From NCBI GenBank assembly GCA_001662655.1, contig KV460206.1: a stretch of DNA of 64,000 bases; one strand, 5' to 3'. Shown here piece by piece: positions 3,001 to 63,269 of the stretch. The DNA comes from Pseudogymnoascus verrucosus (lineage: Eukaryota). The notes beneath the pieces were generated by a model that was not told the origin of the DNA, made no database searches, and saw only the letters and a program-made list of their open reading frames with translations. Within the stretch, counting starts at the first letter, position 1; every line of letters begins with the position of its first letter. The position numbers and the translations under genes were made by a program.

Positions 3001-5397
3001 GATGGACCTCGCGGGCCTCCGCAGTTTCGATAACAATTGCTGCAAGCGATCTCCATTTATTGTTGACTAGATGATGATGGACCATTCCACAGGCGAGAAG
3101 AGCGGAAACGGGAACACGATCAGCAGAAGTGGCCCTGTCGGACAAGATGATAATGCGGTCCTTATTCTCAATCGCTGCCGTTGCTTCGCTGCAGATGTAA
3201 TCCAGGTGTCTGATATACCCCTGAACCCCTTCCTCTTTCTTGAAGGTGAGATCGATGACTTTGACTGTCCATTGCGGATGTAGCGTAGCGATATCCTTCA
3301 AGGCATTCAAGTCAGGGATCGATAGAACTGGCGTGGGGAGAAGTAAACGACTACACTGCGAGGCATCCATTTCAAGGAGGTTACCCTGCGGCCCAACGTA
3401 GCACTCCAAGGACATAACAATGGCTTCCCGAATGGGGTCGATTGGCGGATTTGTCACTTGGGCGAATAGTTGTCTAAAATATTCGTAAAGTAGACGCGGA
3501 GCTTGCGCTAGACATGCTAAAGGAGCGTCGTTTCCCATTGACCCTAGTGCCTCCTTCTCATCAGTGGCCATAGGGCCAAGGAGTAGACTGACTTGCTCGA
3601 AGGTGTAACCAAATGCCTTAAGCATTGGATCTTCTTGGATAGCAGAGCTGGTCGGTTTTGGAGCAAGATCAAGAACACCAGCCGTCGCAAATGTATCGTG
3701 AATTTTAGGCAGGCTTATTAGCTGATCCTGAAGCCATGCTTTGAAGTCATGGCGATTCGATACAGTTGCCTTCAACTCAGCATCATCAATGATGCGGCCA
3801 GCAAGCGTGTCGACTAACAGCATCTTTCCAGGCTGCAATCGACCTTTTTGAACAACACGTTCCGGGTCCACGCTGATGGTGCCAACTTCCGAAGCGCAAA
3901 TAATTCTATCGTCGTCCAAAACGTAGTACCGGCAGGGTCTCAGTCCGTTTCTATCGAGGTTGGCTCCGCAATATCTTCCGTCGGCAAATGTAAACAATGC
4001 TGGGCCATCCCATGGCTCCATCTGGCAGGCAGCCCACTCATAAAAAGCAGCTTTCGCAGGATCCATGGCAGGATTATCTTGCCATGCCTCCGGAATCATC
4101 ATCATGACGGCTTCTGGGAGAGACAGGACTCCATTTATTGTCAACAACTCGAGGACGTTATCGAATGCGGCCGAGTCGGATCCACCATGTTCAACAATTG
4201 GATATAGTAGTTCCAGCTCATCGCCAAAAACATCTGATTGCATCACACCCTCTCGAGCGCGCATCCAGTTCTTATTTCCACGAAGAGTATTGATTTCGCC
4301 TGAATGAGTAGTTAGATACCAAAGTTAAGCATAGTGGTGTAGAGGGTACTAACCATTATGGGCCGCCCATCTCAGTGGCTGAGCCCGATCCCAAGATGGA
4401 AAGGTATTCGTCGAAAATCTCGAGTGCACAAGAGCAAAGTGACCCTCGTAGTCTGCATTTACCAAATCATAGTAATACTGGTATACCTGGATAGGAGCAA
4501 GTTGCCCCTTATAGACGATGTTCTTATTGGATAGCGAGCATAAATAAAACCAATTGTGTGATCCAATGGTGTGGGTAGCACGCTTACGGAGAACATATAG
4601 TTGTCGTTCGAAGTGCTTTTCGTCAAATTGGTCAGGATCTGTAGTCTCTGGCGCATTTCCAGGGCCATACGCAGATGTAAGCACAACAAACGGTTGCAGT
4701 ATGACGGGTTCACGCGAAGCAGCCGCAGGGCCGAGAATAGTAGAATCCCTGGGGGGCTCGCGCCAACCCAAAATACGCAAGCCAAGAGACTCAGCGATAT
4801 TTACTAACTGCTTCTTGGAATCTTGTAAAACCTCTTCGTCTGGCTTGAAGAACAAGTTGCCAACTGCATATTGTCCCAGAGGAGGGAGTTTAATATCGGT
4901 CTCGCGCTCGAAGTTCTTAATGAAGAATTTGTGAGGAATCGATGTCATGACACCAGCGCCATCCCCATCTCGCGCATCAGAACCAACCGCCCCACGATGG
5001 GTCATGTTACAAAGCAAGTTCCGAGCTGCACAAAAAAGATTAGTTATCAAGATATCAAGCAGGAGGGCACACATACCATCGCTAACAATCTTGTGGCTGG
5101 CTTTGCCCTTGATATGGCTATTGTTTTATAAGCCATTGAGTCCAGACTGAAAGGATTATACTCACCAGGTAAATCCCACGCCACAAGCATCCTTCTCTAA
5201 TGCTGGATCATACAAGCCTCTAAATGTAAATTGATTAGTAAAATATAAGATCAATCATACAGAAAGACTTACTGCTTCACAGGAAGAGCTCCAGCCCACG
5301 ACTCATTGTCCTTGGTTTGGTATTCATACTGGTTGTAAGGCTCATTTTCGGCCTCAGTTTGAATATGTCTATCATCGAAATCGTCGACTCTGCCCAT
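1..5397 (-). CDS. GLT1: Glutamate synthase (NADH-GOGAT), 5' part; runs off the window's left edge
   Basis: ATG at 5397 ([13 protein letters not shown]...WAGALPVKQ), then short exons ([15 protein letters not shown]). GATase domain [16 protein letters not shown] / [17 protein letters not shown]. Long exon with FMN-domain motifs ([34 protein letters not shown]) and GXGXG repeats. Confidence 0.97.
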
Positions 5398-49607: not shown

Positions 49608-50949
49608 ATGGCTGCCCCCTCAGTCCTCTTACGCCGAACTCTCCGCCCTCTCTCGAACATCAAACCCCAATCCCTCGCTCCGCTCATAGCCTCCCGCAAC
49701 GCCTCCTCCAAACACCCCAAAGGCTTCGTCGCCCCGACCCCCTCAGACCTCGCCGAGCTGCGCGAACGAGTCCAAGAGTTCACACGCCGCGAGATCCCCG
49801 AAGAAGTCGCCGCCCACACCGACAAATCCAATGAGTTCCCCGCGACAATGTGGAAGAAGCTCGGCGACGCAGGCCTCCTCGGCATCACAGTCGACGAGGA
49901 CGTCGGCGGTCTCGCAATGGGCTACCAAGCCCACGCCATAGTGATGGAAGAGCTTTCCCGCGCCTCCGGCAGCATCGCCCTTTCCTACGCCGCACACTCC
50001 CAGCTCTGCGTCAACCAACTCCAGCTCAACGGCTCGCCCGCGCAGAAGGAGAAGTACCTCCCCGGCCTGATCGCAGGCGACAAAGTCGGCGCGCTCGCCA
50101 TGTCCGAGAGCGGTGCCGGCAGCGACGTCGTCGGCATGCGCACGACAGCCAAGAAGGTCGATGGCGGCTACGAACTCAACGGTACCAAGATGTGGATCAC
50201 CAACGGCCCCGACGCGGACTACATCGTCGTGTACGCGAAGACCGAGCCCGAGGCTGGATCCAAGGGCATCACAGCCTTCATCGTCGAGACGGCGACCTCG
50301 CCCGGCTTCGCTGTCTCGCGCAAGCTCGACAAGATGGGCATGCGCGGCAGCAACACCGGCGAGCTGGTCTTCGACTCGGTGTTCGTGCCCGAGGCGCAGA
50401 TCCTCGGCTCCATCAACCGCGGCGTTAAGGTGCTGATGGAGGGCCTCGACATCGAGCGTCTCGTGCTGTCAGCGGGTCCGCTGGGCCTGATGCAGGCGGC
50501 GCTCGACGTGACGCTGCCGTTCACGCACCAGCGTAAGCAGTTCGGCGCGCCGATCGCGCACAACCAGCTCGTACAGGGCAAGCTGGCGGATATGTACACG
50601 AAGCTGCAGGCGAGCAGGGCGTATACGTATGAGACTGCACGGAGGGTGGATGAGGTGGGGGAGATCCGCACGCAGGATTGTGCGGGGGCTATTCTGTATG
50701 CGGCGGAGCGCGCGACGGAGTGTGCGCTCGATGCGATACAGTTGTTGGGCGGGATGGGGTATATGGAGGAGATGCCGGTGAGCAGGATATTGAGAGAGTG
50801 AGTCTTGTTCCTGTGTTATTTTGGGTGAGCGGGTGCTAACTGTGACGTTTAGTGCGAAGCTTTATGAGATTGGAGCGGGGACGTCGGAGATCAGGAGGAT
50901 GGTTATTGGGAGGGCCTTCAACAAGGAGTATGCTGGGCAGGGGCTATGA
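49608..50949 (+). CDS. ivdA: Isovaleryl-CoA dehydrogenase
   Basis: [47 protein letters not shown]. Last exon [18 protein letters not shown] after intron ~50798-50851. Confidence 0.95.
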
Positions 50950-57390: not shown

Positions 57391-58365
57391 GCGATCTAAC
57401 CATTAAAAAGCTTGTTGTCCCGCTCTTACTTAAGCACGGACTACTGGTCTATAATAACATCTGAACCAGTAGATCTAAGAATATGAAAAGCTTCACCGAT
57501 CGCAACCTTGCAGCTAATATGAAGCCGTATGTTGCCACCGCTACTGTACGTACGAACGCAGACTAACACAAGCCAAACGTTTGGATTGGAGGGATAGATG
57601 GTGGACAGTTGTCTAAGTCCGTCAGATACTACTACCTTAGAATTGTAGCATCACGATGGGGGACAGAGCAAGCCGAAGGACGGGAGAATCAGCGCTCCAG
57701 GCCACATTAGTAGCATTATGACTTGAGAGAGAGTATTGAAAAGTTGGTATGACGGTAGCTATAGATAGCATAGATCAGCAGGGAAAGATTAGATAGCTCA
57801 ATGAATGGTCTTCTGTTAGGGCTGTGTAGGCTGTAATCGAGCACTATGAGAGTGACACTCATTCAAAGAACAGTCCAGACCAACTAAGTTCAAGAGTCAC
57901 TCCCATTAAAAAAACAGTCTATATAGGGATCTAGGATTGTCCCACACAAGTATGGTAGATGCTAAACCTAGCTGCGTCATATATTGATTCGATGGTCTGT
58001 GTCAATGTCAACTCAAAGGAAAAACAACATTAACTTCCTATTCCCCCCAAATCATGTACAGAGGCAAACAACTCACATCGTTTGAATAGCACACTGTCAT
58101 ATTATGATTTGACGTAATATTGTCTCACAATAGCTCCTTTACCAAATCGGGCACTGTTCGATCACTTCTCATTCATGCCAGATCTTGGTTGCACTATCAG
58201 CGGATATGGCTACCATTACAGTGTTAGAATGCAACGGCTGACATTACAACGAGACGCCAATTCAAGCCTTCGTATAAAAAGTCGTTGATACTACCTTTGA
58301 CGTCTATTTATCTTTTACAAGGTCTCTAAGAGAATGGTTCTATATCAAGGAACGATTCACTTACC

Positions 58366-60601
58366 ATGGCAAAACTTCTTATAGTCACCTTGCTTGTACT
58401 CTGTTAGTCTCCCAACATATTTATGATTGCAACTCTATTTCTCTATCACGGCGCGCTAACTTGAAAAGCCGTGGCTGCTAATCCGCAGGGCGGCGGCAAC
58501 AGTGAATGCGCACAGTGGTGCGCCGCGAACTTCGCCCATCCCGGAAATATATGTACAGCACCAGCCGCTCATGGCGAGGGCCCATGCTACGTCTGCGGCC
58601 CAGGCAAGGCCTCACCAACAGAGCAGCTATGCAACGGTGCGTGTAGCGAAACCAGCTCCGATCCTAAAAATTGCGGCGCTTGTAACAATGTGGTAAGATG
58701 CGAGTTTCGAATAGCTTCCTGTATGATTATAACTCAATTCTAATACCGCTGCTCATATATAGTGCCCTTCTGGCAGCACCTGCAAGTCAGGAGCTTGCAT
58801 ATGCACTAATAGCAACTTGGCACCATGCAACGGTGCTTGCCCAGACCTAGGATCTGATAGCAATAATTGTGGAACGTGTAATAACAAGGTAACATGATAG
58901 TTGTTTGTAAGCATCACAGCTTATTCTAATATGTCTCCAGTGCCCTACTGGCAGCACCTGCAAGTCAGGAGCTTGCATATGCACTAATAGCAATTTAGCA
59001 CCATGTAACGGTGCTTGCCCAGACCTAGGATCTGATAGCAATAATTGTGGAAAGTGTGATAACAAGGTAACATGATGATCATTTGTGAGAACTTTACAAC
59101 TTATTCTGACATGTCTCTAGTGCCCTGCTGGCAGCACCTGCAAGTCAGGAGCTTGCATATGCACTAATAGCAATTTAGCACCATGTAACGGTGCTTGCCC
59201 AGACCTAGGATCTGATAGCAATAATTGTGGAAAGTGTGATAACAAGGTAACATGATAATCATTTGTGAGAACTTTACAACTTATTCTGACATGTCTCTAG
59301 TGCCCTGCTGGCAGCACCTGCAAGTCAGGAGCTTGCATATGCACTAATAGCAATTTAGCACTATGTAACGGTGCATGCCCAGATCTAGGATCTGACAGTC
59401 AGAATTGTGGCAAGTGTGGGAATATAGTAAGTCGGTGCATCTTCTACACAGAATTCCGAATGCTCACTTGGCGTTACATCTAGTGTCCGACTGGCAGCAG
59501 CTGTAAGTCAGGAGCTTGCATATGTACAAATAGCAACTTGGCACTATGCAATGGTGCGTGCCCAGACCTAGGATCCGACAGCCAGAATTGTGGCAAGTGT
59601 GGGAATACAGTAAGTCCTTGCGTCTTCCACACATAATTCCGAATCCTGAATACTCACTTGTTACATCTAGTGCCCGACTGGCAGCACCTGTAAGTCAGGA
59701 GCCTGTATTTGCACGAATAGCAACTCAGCTCCTTGCAATGGCGCATGTCCAGACGTGGGATCCGACAGCCAGAATTGTGGCAAGTGTGGGAATATAGTAA
59801 GTCCTTGCATCTTCTAAACAGTATTCCGAATACTCACTTATTACATCTAGTGTCCAACTGGCAGCACCTGCAAGTCAGGAGCCTGTATATGTACAAATAG
59901 CAACTTGGCTCCATGCAATGGCGCATGCCCAGACCTAACGTCTGATAACAACAACTGTGGGACATGTAATCACGCGGTACGTTTCCTATGATGATATATT
60001 TCTTGAACTTGGCCCGTAGATTTTACTAACATGCCTGTGCCTGGAAGTGCGGTGCGTCCGCAACCTGCAAGAACAGTATCTGCGTACCGAATTGTGCTCC
60101 CCCGAAAATGGTGTGTAATGGCGTATGCTTAGATGTCCTCACAGACCCAAACAACTGCGGGACCTGTGGAAAGAAGGTACGGACACTCCCAACAGAGTAT
60201 CAAACCGAAATAAATACACTTGAATGCTAATAATGAGAAATTAGTGTGCATCTGGCGTGTGCAACAATGGGGCTTGCACAACTCCAAGCTGCACCGGCAA
60301 GACGTGTTCCACATTCGGGCCATGTGGCCCTGGTGGATCTTGTGTCTGTGGCAGTACCACAGCAGGCACTGGGTTTTGCGTCGATGGTCAAACACCTTGC
60401 GACGGCCTCCCAACTTGCAACGCTAACTCCGATTGTTCATCCGGTCAGGTTTGCATTGTTAACAGCTGTTGCGTTAAAAATGTTTGCGTCGGTGCAACAT
60501 TCTGTGGCGGTAACACACTGCGCGTTCGTGATTGGTTCTTCCCCACGGTTCCTCGCGCAGTCATGGCAACCATCGGCCATGCGGGCGTTTTGAGGGTTTA
60601 A
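58366..60601 (+). CDS. Secreted cysteine-rich tandem-repeat protein (Stig1-like D..NCG.C repeats), 11 exons
   Basis: Exons 58366-58402, 58469-58692, 58763-58888, 58941-59066, 59121-59246, 59301-59426, 59484-59609, 59671-59796, 59851-59976, 60048-60176, 60245-60601, all GT-AG. Signal peptide MAKLLIVTLLVLSVAA. Confidence 0.88.
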
Positions 60602-61083
60602 AGGAGATGCCTTTGGGGACATGTTAAAAAGTATTCTGAACTCTGGTCTAAACTATGACAAATATTCCGTCAGTCTCGTCTATTTAGGTTCTGTCCTCTG
60701 GTTACAAAAGTTCTTTGCCTAACTACTTGCAAGCTGAACGTGCGCAAAGTCTGCATTCGTTATTTCGCCTTAACTATCTATCTTTTAATTAATGAGAATT
60801 AAGCTTTTTCAAGTAGTATATACTTGTATCATGACCCACACAGTATTACTCTCTTGCTGCGTAAATCATAATCTCCCAAGGAGGACCTATCAAGTCCTAG
60901 AACCTAGAGTGGACTCAGAGACGGTTCTTCCGACCAAGACGAGTTAACTTTCCCTACTCAAGACGTCAAAAGAATAGGGTGAAGTGAGAGTTTCACCTTA
61001 TTCTTTTTGAATTTTTACTCCACTCCCTTTGCCGACCTGCAGAGCTGAAGGATTCCGTAGCTGCCTCGTAGATCCCCTGTCGT

Positions 61084-61511
61084 TTGTTCTCACTATGATA
61101 CCTCGAGGCGGGCGTCACAAACGTTGACCTTTGGACCAAACAAAGACCAAAAAGTCGAATGACTATTACAGTCTAATTTTGGTTGCAGTTGGAATCTGGT
61201 TGTCTCGGGTTAACCGACTGCGGTTCAAGCACTGTTATCATTTGACAGTTGACAAAGAAGCATGGCACGCTGTGGTAACAAAGCAAAACGTCTCGTCTTG
61301 TTCTCACTGTGATGCCTCGAGGCAGGGGTCACAAACCCTGACCTTTGGATCAAACAAAGACCAAAAGGTCGAATGACTGTTACAGTCTAATTTTGGTTGC
61401 AGTTGGAATCTGGTTGTCTCGGGTTAACTGATTGTAGTTCAAGCGCTGTTCTCATTTGATAGTCGACAAAGAAGCATGACACGCTATGGTAACAAAGCAA
61501 AACGTCTCGTC
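61084..61511. repeat. 214-bp tandem duplication, 2 diverged copies
   Basis: Copies start at 61084 and 61298 (TTGTTCTCACT...AAAACGTCTCGTC). Differences are mostly C/T and G/A. Confidence 0.9.
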
Positions 61512-61600
61512 TTATTAGAAGCCATGGTTCGGCGACCAAGCTGTAAGACAAAATCTCCAACACTTCGATGTAAAGCGGCTATTAATGTGATGCTTTGCCC

Positions 61601-63269
61601 ATGGTAATCATGACAGAGTTAAACCCCGTAGCTCGACAGCCACGTCGAAATCACTCACTTGTGCATCAGCGAGTTTCTAGCCTTCAAACCTTCCCAGAAC
61701 AAATCCGCGCGCCCAATAATACACAAATCGAGAACAAAGAGATAGTGGAAGTCCCAAAGGTGCGTATTGGAAATTCTCACTATACCAATCAGAACCTAAC
61801 TATATAATCTTCAGCCCACTGAGCTACAGCGAAGTCCTCTACACTCGAAGCACCTTCGTGCCACAGTCCCAGAGAGTATCCCGCCATCAAAGAGCCAAAT
61901 CATTCACGGATGCACCAGAGAGCGTGCTATTGACAGTGTCAAACGGTGGTTGGAGCCCGTTTCGGGATCAAAATTGGGATCCTGTCAGGAACGACGCTCC
62001 CACTCAGACTCGATCCAAAATCACTCTGAAGTTACCTACTCTGGCAACATCCCTATCCCTCGAAACTGCACAAACTCGGCGCCAGTCGAAGGGGGAACTC
62101 GAGATACCGAAAAGTTTGCTCAGGCACTTGCCATACCTCTGATACAATCTAGTCGGAACGGAGAGGATCACGGTACTCATTGCGACGATTGTTCATGCTC
62201 TCGATCAGCTACGCCAGAAGATGCATCTACAACCTTTACTATGTTAAGTAGGCAATCTCTTGTTGAGAATCCTATGTATAGGGCACATTTAAAGCAGAAC
62301 GGCATCGATTTACTCCCTTCGTACAACCATTTGCCAGGGAATATTTCAGACTTCGTCAATCATCTATGGAAATATCGCAACCCGATAGGGCCATTGGAAA
62401 GTCAAATACAATCGGATAAGCGACTAGCAAAGCTTAGAACGGGTTCCGCAGAGAGCGAGGTCGCATCATATTTCCAGGAACAGCTATTCCTGGTGTCCGA
62501 ACAGACAGATATCCTAAAGGGAAGCCTCAAGTTGCCAATGTCTAAGCTTGTTGTCCCAGGCGTCGATTCAGAATTGAGGGTTAGCATCCCAGTCCCTGAT
62601 ATTCTCTACGGTTACGACTGGTTAGGCGCTTTCACCGACGAAGAACAAGTCCAACTTAATTCAATGGTGATCCCGGTCTTTGGTAACAATGACGGCTTGG
62701 TATTTCCCTTCTTCGCAATAGAGCAAAAGGGGGATGGTCCAGTCAGTCGAGGGAGCTTATGGGTTGCAACGAACCAATGCCTAGGTGCCTCTGCATCGTG
62801 CGTCAACATAGTTGAGCGATTTAACCAGCTCCTGAGACAGTGCAACGATAACAACGACGACATTAAAGGCGGTAATATTGACGTCGGTCTACCCAATAGC
62901 ACATCTTTTAGTATAGCTATGAATGGCTCCGAGGCGCGCCTCTACGTTACCTGGAAGCACGACGAGTTTAAATACCACACTGCAATCGTCGATAGCTTCC
63001 TCCTCCAAAGACCCATGGATTTCCTCAAATTCCGCAGGTACGTCCTGAATATACTCGACTGGGGCATGAGTGCACGCCTCACAGCAATCCGGAACTCGTT
63101 GGGCCACCTTCGCGAGGAGAGCAGGAAGATGGCCTCAAGACGGGCTAAGGCCCGACTGTCGCCTTCGATGGAGGACCGAGATAACGGACAGGCTCAAAAA
63201 CGGCGCAGGGGCTACCGACGAGCCGTTGTGGATGACACGGAGTCGAGCATGGATCCACTGACACTTTAG
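61601..63269 (+). CDS. Fungal PD-(D/E)XK-like protein of unknown function (DUF7924-like); start uncertain
   Basis: Upstream exon (MVIMTELNPVARQ...VPK) and intron ~61760-61815 join in frame to ORF 61950-63269. Motifs PVPDILYGY, FPFFAIEQKG, ATNQCLG, RLYVTW. Confidence 0.65.

Follow-up and report, generated by a model that had tools for sequence, protein, structure and literature searches.

A gene that carries one copy of a protein repeat on each of many exons raises the question of how such a run was built, and whether its length is set in the genome or at splicing. Both questions apply to a locus on the + strand of contig KV460206.1 of Pseudogymnoascus verrucosus (assembly GCA_001662655.1), within the stretch of 64,000 nucleotides that was analysed and that we refer to as the window. 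An earlier note on this DNA had picked out seven consecutive exons of 126 bp, all in phase 0 and each encoding eight Cys residues. We find that these exons are part of an intact 11-exon gene of a filamentous ascomycete, which extends from 58366 to 60601 as read from the AG/GT borders of the region, and that they are followed by an eighth repeat in exon 10. The best overall explanation, which we consider likely, is that of a selected, tandem-grown gene with one module per exon, encoding a predicted secreted Cys-rich protein and having its array set by recombination.

An intact eleven-exon gene

When the exons are joined they comprise 1629 nt, which translate as a single open frame of 542 codons with a terminal stop. 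All ten introns are 52–71 bp long, begin with GT and end with AG, and every one contains an in-frame stop, which leaves the spliced form as the only open one; reading four of the exons through their introns meets 7 stop codons. As had been remarked previously, the gene escapes a simple search for open reading frames (ORFs): in the six-frame list of ORFs of at least 100 aa between 50000 and 64000, it is represented by its last exon only (60246–60593 and 60257–60601).

The gene is described here in order along the + strand. A TATAAAA motif at 58273–58279, 87 bp upstream of the start codon, is a possible TATA box. Exon 1 (58366–58402, 37 bp) provides the start codon and a hydrophobic, signal-peptide-like leader, and joining it to exon 2 restores the leader of the intron-less relative P0014/L034, which runs unbroken across the site of intron 1 (58403–58468, 66 bp, GTTAGT..AAG, with a branch-like CTAAC motif). 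According to the family alignment, exon 2 (58469–58692, 224 bp) encodes a conserved N-terminal Cys domain, hereafter the N-domain, and a first NCGxC half-unit. It is followed by intron 2 (58693–58762, 70 bp), which is unrelated to the introns between the repeats. The seven 126-bp repeat exons, which we call units 1–7 together with their introns, lie at 58763–58888, 58941–59066, 59121–59246, 59301–59426, 59484–59609, 59671–59796 and 59851–59976. Each is flanked by AG and GT, and its 42 codons include 8 for Cys, always at the same positions. Intron 9 (59977–60047, 71 bp, GTACGT..AAG, with a TACTAAC motif) leads to exon 10 (60048–60176, 129 bp), an eighth and diverged Stig1-like repeat. After intron 10 (60177–60244, 68 bp), exon 11 (60245–60601, 357 bp including the stop) encodes a conserved C-terminal Cys cassette, hereafter the C-cassette, with a TIGH-type tail. 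There are therefore eight consecutive repeat exons, seven of 126 bp and one of 129 bp, all starting and ending in phase 0, and the whole protein holds 9 NCGxC motifs. The gene model confirms the run of exons that was first reported and extends it by one; the accompanying description of distinct N- and C-terminal Cys domains behind a signal-peptide-like start also agrees with our reading, and each of the two domains has relatives of its own.

To describe coding constraint, the proportions of non-synonymous (pN) and synonymous (pS) differences were obtained from Nei–Gojobori counts, using a custom script, for the 21 pairs that can be formed from the seven 126-bp exons. Differences are mostly synonymous, with a pN/pS of 0.06–0.27 in 20 pairs; the remaining pair, units 2 and 3, shows one difference, which is non-synonymous. 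Across the pairs pS reaches 0.76 and pN is at most 0.142. This excess of synonymous changes, with high pS alongside low pN, indicates that the frame has long been under protein-level selection. The open frame of 542 codons and the mostly synonymous exon differences show that the array is not a matter of chance.

These data also bear on an alternative in which the locus is a decaying or silent duplicate, the result of a recent DNA-level tandem duplication with no protein function. In its favour, none of the public runs listed is on record as RNA, and the gene's own product is not among the matches from protein-collection searches made with exon 2, a repeat exon and exon 11. Set against this, all ten introns run from GT to AG, 542 codons are open, pS rises to 0.76 while pN stays within 0.142, and all 8 Cys are kept in 7/7 units. 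There is also no strong transition excess of the kind left by repeat-induced point mutation (1–25 transitions versus 0–14 transversions per exon pair). We give this alternative very little credence. Elsewhere in the window no paralogue of the gene or its repeat was seen, as 0/30 tblastn high-scoring segment pairs fell outside the gene.

Repeat units of several ages

The DNA of the repeats forms an array that is recognised by Tandem Repeats Finder at 58760–59937 on the + strand, with a period of 180 bp, 6.5 copies, 84% matches and a score of 930; an inner part of it gives 4.7 copies, 88% matches and a score of 1135. This period, taken with the similarity between the introns, bears out the proposal that the repeating unit of about 180 bp includes its intron. 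The seven repeat exons are 72% to 99.2% identical to each other. The first three units are mutually 95–99% alike, and units 2 and 3, with exons that are 99.2% identical, differ at just 2/180 bases; the exon of unit 7 is the most diverged of the seven. Two lineages are seen among the introns, in agreement with the earlier note. The first comprises intron 3 (58889–58940, 52 bp), which is 76–78% identical to introns 4 (59067–59120, 54 bp) and 5 (59247–59300, 54 bp), while these two, which had been called almost identical, differ at 1/54 positions (98.1% identity). The second comprises introns 6 (59427–59483, 57 bp), 7 (59610–59670, 61 bp) and 8 (59797–59850, 54 bp), which are 79–84% alike. Between the two groups identity is 56–70%, near the 48–66% found between unrelated introns of the gene.

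The units are clearly not all of the same age. Since units 5, 6 and 7 have a mutual pS of 0.48–0.66, they must be old; compared both with each other and with the young units, they give values of 0.45–0.76 overall. The array had been described as a record of recent stepwise expansion, and this holds for units 1–3 and for the 5′ half of unit 4 (95–99% identity), but not for units 5–7. Unit 4 is itself a mosaic, with a 5′ half from the young lineage and a 3′ half from the older one: over the first 63 bases it matches unit 3 at 98.4%, whereas over the last 63 it matches unit 5 at 88.9% and unit 3 at only 81.0%. An edge of the latest expansion or conversion therefore lay inside an exon. The unit borders of the latest events lie within exons and not at the exon/intron edges. 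The repeating period is exon plus intron, and the recombining segment, as judged from these identities, appears to be “half exon, intron, half exon”.

From this pattern of identities, we propose that misaligned 180-bp units recombine unequally but in register, which lengthens the array and probably also shortens or homogenises it. The reading frame would survive such events because the recombining period is a whole exon-plus-intron unit, whatever the intron phase. Selection keeps the protein sequence of every module, and the length of the array would be set by the genome, differing between lineages rather than between splice isoforms. It had been argued that phase-0 exons can be gained or lost without a frameshift; the phase arithmetic is true, but the frame would be kept by in-register recombination of 180-bp units and not by intron phase.

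Contigs of four public runs (X1, X2, X3 and X20) were compared with the window over 58300–60700. Run X1 is identical to the window but broken into 12 pieces inside the array, and run X2, which carries another organism label, shows a few substitutions within the repeats and no joint. For run X3, from a more distant relative, one contig passes in register from 58875 directly to 59234 and so lacks 358 bases, or about two units, which is a short-read hint only; some of the missing stretch is present on a second X3 contig. Within the array the contigs of all three of these runs are interrupted, and the number of seven units is neither confirmed nor contradicted by any run. Because units 2 and 3 are nearly identical and the short-read contigs are broken in the array, the assembly of the window is the sole basis for the exact copy number.

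The family and its arrays

The Cys/Asp/Asn signature of Stig1 (C..C.D...D..NCG.C) is present as 9 motifs in the gene model. A search with the Stig1 profile hidden Markov model (PF04885) had been suggested, and it shows a resemblance to Stig1: 6/7 exon pieces match at 17.4–22.2 bits, the best of these single-exon scores coming from exon 10, and every single exon falls under the gathering cut-off of 24.1 bits, while full-length relatives score 27–76 bits. The relatives above the cut-off are P0103 (75.5), L005 (73.7), P0016 (63.9), P0156 (31.7), P0019 (30.6) and L040 (27.1 bits), and P0014 remains under it at 18.9 bits. Each match spans only part of the 85-position profile. The motif of about 40 residues is widespread, as a full HMMER scan with P0014 as query matched 7396 cluster representatives at E ≤ 0.001, of which 2419 reach E ≤ 1e-10 and 213 reach E ≤ 1e-30; in some of the proteins up to 18–20 stretches are matched. 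Among them are very long proteins (P0021–P0027 and others, up to 5297 aa) with 11–20 matched Stig1-like stretches. The lipoprotein-like leader of P0021 suggests that the motif forms large arrays outside fungi too.

Protein relatives were collected with three queries. Exon 2 gave six proteins at 62–78% identity among 8 candidates, a repeat exon gave one protein among 2 candidates, and exon 11 gave 13 proteins among 94. The members that carry the N-domain and have a name are all called “hypothetical protein”: FOQG_17832 of Fusarium oxysporum (P0156), B0J13DRAFT_564330 of Dactylonectria (P0019) and QBC43DRAFT_304259 of Cladorrhinum (P0103), with N-domains 52–73% identical to exon 2. An alignment of this domain has 23 invariant columns over 9 family members. 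The full architecture of N-domain, modules and C-cassette is shared by P0016 and P0156, which align to both ends of the model, and P0018, a gene call that reads through introns, has insertions at the same module borders. Judging from sequence, the gene belongs to what appears to be an unstudied fungal family, defined by a conserved N-domain, a variable number of Stig1-like repeats and a C-cassette. Our literature search found no study of fungal Stig1-repeat proteins or of the named members, beyond a domain list in the accessible part of PMC3828140, which names Stig1 as one of the Pfam domains present in the small secreted proteins that a nematode-trapping fungus encodes.

The C-cassette occurs outside this architecture too. 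Its alignment has 31 invariant columns over 17 sequences, and the cassette of the window gene is 61% identical to those of P0016 and P0156 and 71% to that of L040. It also ends fungal proteins with other N-terminal parts, always after one Stig1-like unit. In fungal proteins of about 570 aa (P0004, P0006, P0007, P0009, P0011 and P0013) it accompanies a phospholipase A2 domain (PF06951) or a phospholipase A2 name, and in P0001, P0003 and P0005 the same Cys cassette of about 90 residues, with its TIGH-type tail, follows yet other N-terminal parts. The C-cassette looks like a reusable or mobile C-terminal module without a Pfam family, and its recurrence at the end of secreted phospholipase A2 proteins may point to a targeting module common to both groups.

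With the N-domain alignment as query, 61 of 210 candidate stretches from metagenomes were confirmed as relatives, representing 60 loci. At least one motif on the + strand was found at 48 of these, and two or more well-separated motifs at 23. Spacing divides the 23 loci into three groups. In 11, the motifs are 170–266 nt apart, usually shifting frame, on contigs of 2240–8222 nt; in nine, they are 81–144 nt apart in one frame, and 8/9 of the contigs are of 1022–1426 nt; and in three (L005, L046 and L048) the spacing is mixed. From their length and layout, the short intron-less contigs look as if they derive from mRNA.

The five intron-bearing loci that were scanned contain 24 repeat exons of 123–129 bp and introns of 47–140 bp. 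L002 has five repeat exons of 126 bp and one of 129 bp, with introns of 49–77 bp; L009 has five of 123 bp with introns of 71–76 bp; L050 has eight of 123 bp with introns of 47–75 bp; L003 has three of 126 bp with introns of 51–57 bp; and L001 has two of 126 bp around an intron of 140 bp. A spacing of n times 126 followed by 129 is common to L002, L005, L006, L011, L040 and the window gene. It is most plainly seen in L005, a single ORF of 374 codons in which motif spacings of 126, 126, 126 and 129 repeat the rhythm of the window exons; this ORF comprises a leader, the N-domain, four modules and the C-cassette, and the first three modules have 42 residues, two of these being identical, while the fourth has 43. 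These gene structures show one module per exon as the ancestral layout of the whole family. Arrays that include introns at the DNA level were detected in L002 (period 176, 3.2 copies) and L009 (period 199, 5.7 copies), and not in L050 or L003. The array of L009, at 3419–4538, has five 123-bp repeat exons, near-constant introns of 76 bp and 85% matches, and looks like an independent, young exon-plus-intron array.

Two irregular contigs were also observed. In L046 (whose ORF is P0148), with motifs at 299–860 and otherwise intron-less, the spacings are 126, 126, 126 and 183 nt, with about 19 residues inserted in frame at a module border; the contig would seem to come from an mRNA that kept one of its introns. 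In L005, positions 1–103 are 100% identical over 103 nt to positions 454–556 of L006, a repeat segment that lies at the 5′ end of the first and inside the ORF of its near-twin; the repeats have probably made the assembly of L005 wrap around, giving the 5′ copy.

Gene structure also bears on a splice-tunable stalk, in which isoforms of different length would be made by skipping phase 0–0 exons. Eight consecutive exons are symmetric in phase 0, and the near-identical splice sites of neighbouring units could in principle mispair. Against this, introns of 52–71 bp fall in the size range for which PMC3925392, in its accessible part, proposes intron definition, and the same survey of 23 fungi attributes 3% of alternative-splicing events to skipped exons versus 61% to intron retention, giving the idea a low prior. 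In addition, the intron-less contigs of relatives are regular, complete arrays, and the irregular L046, with its 183-nt spacing, contains additional in-frame sequence and does not lack an exon. On this analysis, regulated exon skipping would be an unlikely length dial, and we hold the splice-tunable stalk as a whole to be very unlikely.

That repeat number varies between related genes, as proposed earlier, is clear from the motif counts: there are 1–5 NCGxC motifs in nine protein relatives, and when all relatives are considered, counts of 1, 2, 3, 4, 5, 7 and 8 are seen against 9 in the window gene. These differing counts indicate that module number really changes. A maximum-likelihood tree of 26 repeat exons (126 columns) places the seven window units in one clade (support 95/95), five L002 units in another (91/91) and the units of L005 and L006 in a third (99/97). 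Units cluster by gene and not by position. Every lineage must therefore have built up its own array from a small number of units or else be homogenising it continually, and both of these need ongoing in-register recombination. Pure concerted evolution, with an ancient array of constant number made to look young by gene conversion, would also give a clustering by gene, as is seen for each of the three genes that contribute at least three units to the tree, and a mosaic such as unit 4. It does not sit well with motif numbers of 1, 2, 3, 4, 5, 7, 8 and 9 among family members, nor with the X3 contig that joins unit 1 to unit 3 in register (the short-read hint described above), and we regard it as improbable.

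More speculatively, recombination might act as a “length dial”. The intron-bearing 180-bp units would stay misalignable, and some crossovers would fall in sequence that is spliced out, so that length could change often, even between strains, under selection by hosts or competitors. The locus would then be of a contingency type, serving an extracellular rod, and would have arisen independently in many lineages (the window, L002, L005 and L009). We rate this extension of the recombination model as rather unlikely.

The predicted product and known systems

The predicted product has 542 residues, of which 90 are Cys (16.6%), with 10.0% Ser and 7.7% Thr. From its start, it consists of a leader, the N-terminal Cys domain, eight Stig1-like modules in direct succession, of which the first seven have 42 residues and the last 43, and the C-terminal Cys cassette. 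The modules abut without linker or spacer, there are no N-x-S/T sequons in the product, and its single dibasic (K/R) pair is at residue 423, with none at the borders of the seven 126-bp repeats. Nor does the product have Ser/Thr-rich glycosylated repeats of the Flo/Als type, and its C-terminal tail is conserved in soluble-looking relatives. The lack of linkers, border dibasic sites and sequons makes both cleavage into peptides and a mucin-like stalk less likely. One could picture a polyprotein precursor that is cut into 42-residue Cys-rich peptides, as for progranulin or Kex2-processed fungal repeat proteins, since many near-identical small disulfide-rich modules occur in one predicted secreted chain and plant STIG1-family members act as small secreted ligands. 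The distribution of dibasic sites and the lack of linkers speak against such cutting, as do border sequences that differ between units, and we find a polyprotein highly improbable.

Structure was predicted with AlphaFold2 for the relative L005, using 11 family sequences. The L005 model has a beta-hairpin in each module, block means of the predicted local distance difference test (pLDDT) of 84–94 across the modules and a predicted template-modelling score (pTM) of 0.45; confidence is lower in the N-domain, with three short helices, and in the C-cassette. A pTM of 0.45 is to be expected for an elongated chain and was counted in favour of a rod-like stack of modules. The highest-ranking Foldseek rows, all at E ≥ 0.3 and so weak, are disulfide rods of the EGF (NELL2, Notch EGF), TNFR and follistatin types. 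In the ESM Atlas the best scores were 0.82 for the C-cassette (DUF7107/Dickkopf_N-type clusters) and 0.77 for the N part (plant Stig1 clusters), both below 0.9 and to be taken as leads only. It is possible, and we offer this tentatively on the basis of the model, that the linker-free modules of a secreted product form a stiff, disulfide-bonded rod, which could act as a spacer between the N-domain and the binding partner of the C-cassette, or as a multivalent binding surface.

A number of observations weigh against this overall interpretation of the gene, its product and its growth. There is no transcript evidence for the gene itself among the public runs, and no listed run is on record as RNA; run X20, guessed to be RNA, consists of a single 242-nt contig (58468–58709) that extends 17 nt into intron 2 and settles nothing. 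Copy number depends on one assembly. The exon scan of the metagenome loci finds such an exon for each motif, but it reports only AG|..|GT frames of multiple-of-three length and so provides no independent test of phase, and a search among the 60 loci for a genomic and an intron-less version of one gene gave no pair at ≥93% identity and one 223-nt match at ≥80%. The unit tree cannot separate independent expansion from concerted evolution. On the structural side, the C-cassette folds poorly (mean pLDDT 53.4), and the L005 model had 0 Foldseek matches in the PDB at E ≤ 0.001 (best 0.3) and 0 at Z ≥ 2 in a VIA-align comparison with 48,161 chains, while a PDB sequence search gave 0 matches at E ≤ 1. 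A rod or spacer function leans on the model of a relative, and secretion is read from the sequence.

Other features were noted around the gene. An inverted repeat of 18 pairs at 60968–61007, with an AT-rich stem and a 4-nt loop, lies some 370 nt beyond the stop codon; a scan for bacterial terminators reported it, and the host is a eukaryote. A second, unrelated tandem repeat is found at 61080–61513, about 480 bp downstream of the stop, with a period of 214, 2.0 copies and 90% matches. The adjoining ORF of 439 aa (61950–63269, +) matches Pfam DUF7924 at 80.7 bits. At 49608–50801 (+), an ORF that may be a single exon of some larger gene has the full set of three acyl-CoA dehydrogenase domains.

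Comparison with known systems places the gene closest to its own unnamed family. P0156, P0019 and P0103 have the same N-terminal Cys domain and Stig1-like modules, but only 1–5 NCGxC motifs compared to the 9 of the window gene. The Cys/Asp/Asn motif is shared with plant STIG1 and GRIM REAPER (PF04885). The plant STIG1 members are small, secreted, single-domain proteins that serve as ligands of receptor kinases, whereas the window gene has the motif as an eight-fold tandem module between two other domains. Long tandem arrays of the same motif of about 40 residues occur in the multi-repeat proteins P0021, P0027, P0082 and P0098, which are probably bacterial to judge from lipoprotein-like leaders in some of them; these differ in having other flanking domains, and share neither the N-domain nor the C-cassette.

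Repeats of the FLO1 and Rsp3 type are Ser/Thr-rich. In the accessible descriptions of yeast FLO1 (PMC3537727) and Ustilago maydis Rsp3 (PMC5923269), the protein is likewise secreted and has a central tandem array that varies in length, in frame, by recombination. Their repeats lie within one exon, whereas the units of the window each carry an intron and encode Cys-rich modules with no sequons; and while FLO1 and Rsp3 are length-polymorphic, the length differences seen in the family of the window gene are between the genes of relatives.

The mechanism itself is the classic tandem duplication of symmetric exons known from animal extracellular proteins, and the window gene carries its marks in consecutive homologous exons of equal length and phase, with homologous introns between them. 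Growth of proteins in this way is textbook knowledge for animals and, to our knowledge, seldom documented in fungi. The gene also flags an unstudied and widespread family of predicted secreted Cys-rich proteins in soil and plant-associated ascomycetes. Metazoan EGF-repeat proteins and progranulin, as presented in the accessible part of PMC4527844, are likewise chains of small disulfide-rich modules whose number changes by tandem duplication of exons with symmetric phase. The window gene differs from them in being fungal, with introns of 52–71 bp, phase 0–0 exons, a 180-bp unit that is still recognisable in the DNA and no significant fold match. What is less usual is the combination of a fungal gene, an intron in every unit, several duplicate ages in one array and parallel arrays in relatives. 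Duplicates within this one gene range from 99% identical to saturated at silent sites, and at least three other lineages of the family have made arrays of their own. With duplicates of several ages, a junction that can be placed inside an exon and these parallel arrays, the family offers a good natural series for the in-frame expansion of intron-bearing repeats.

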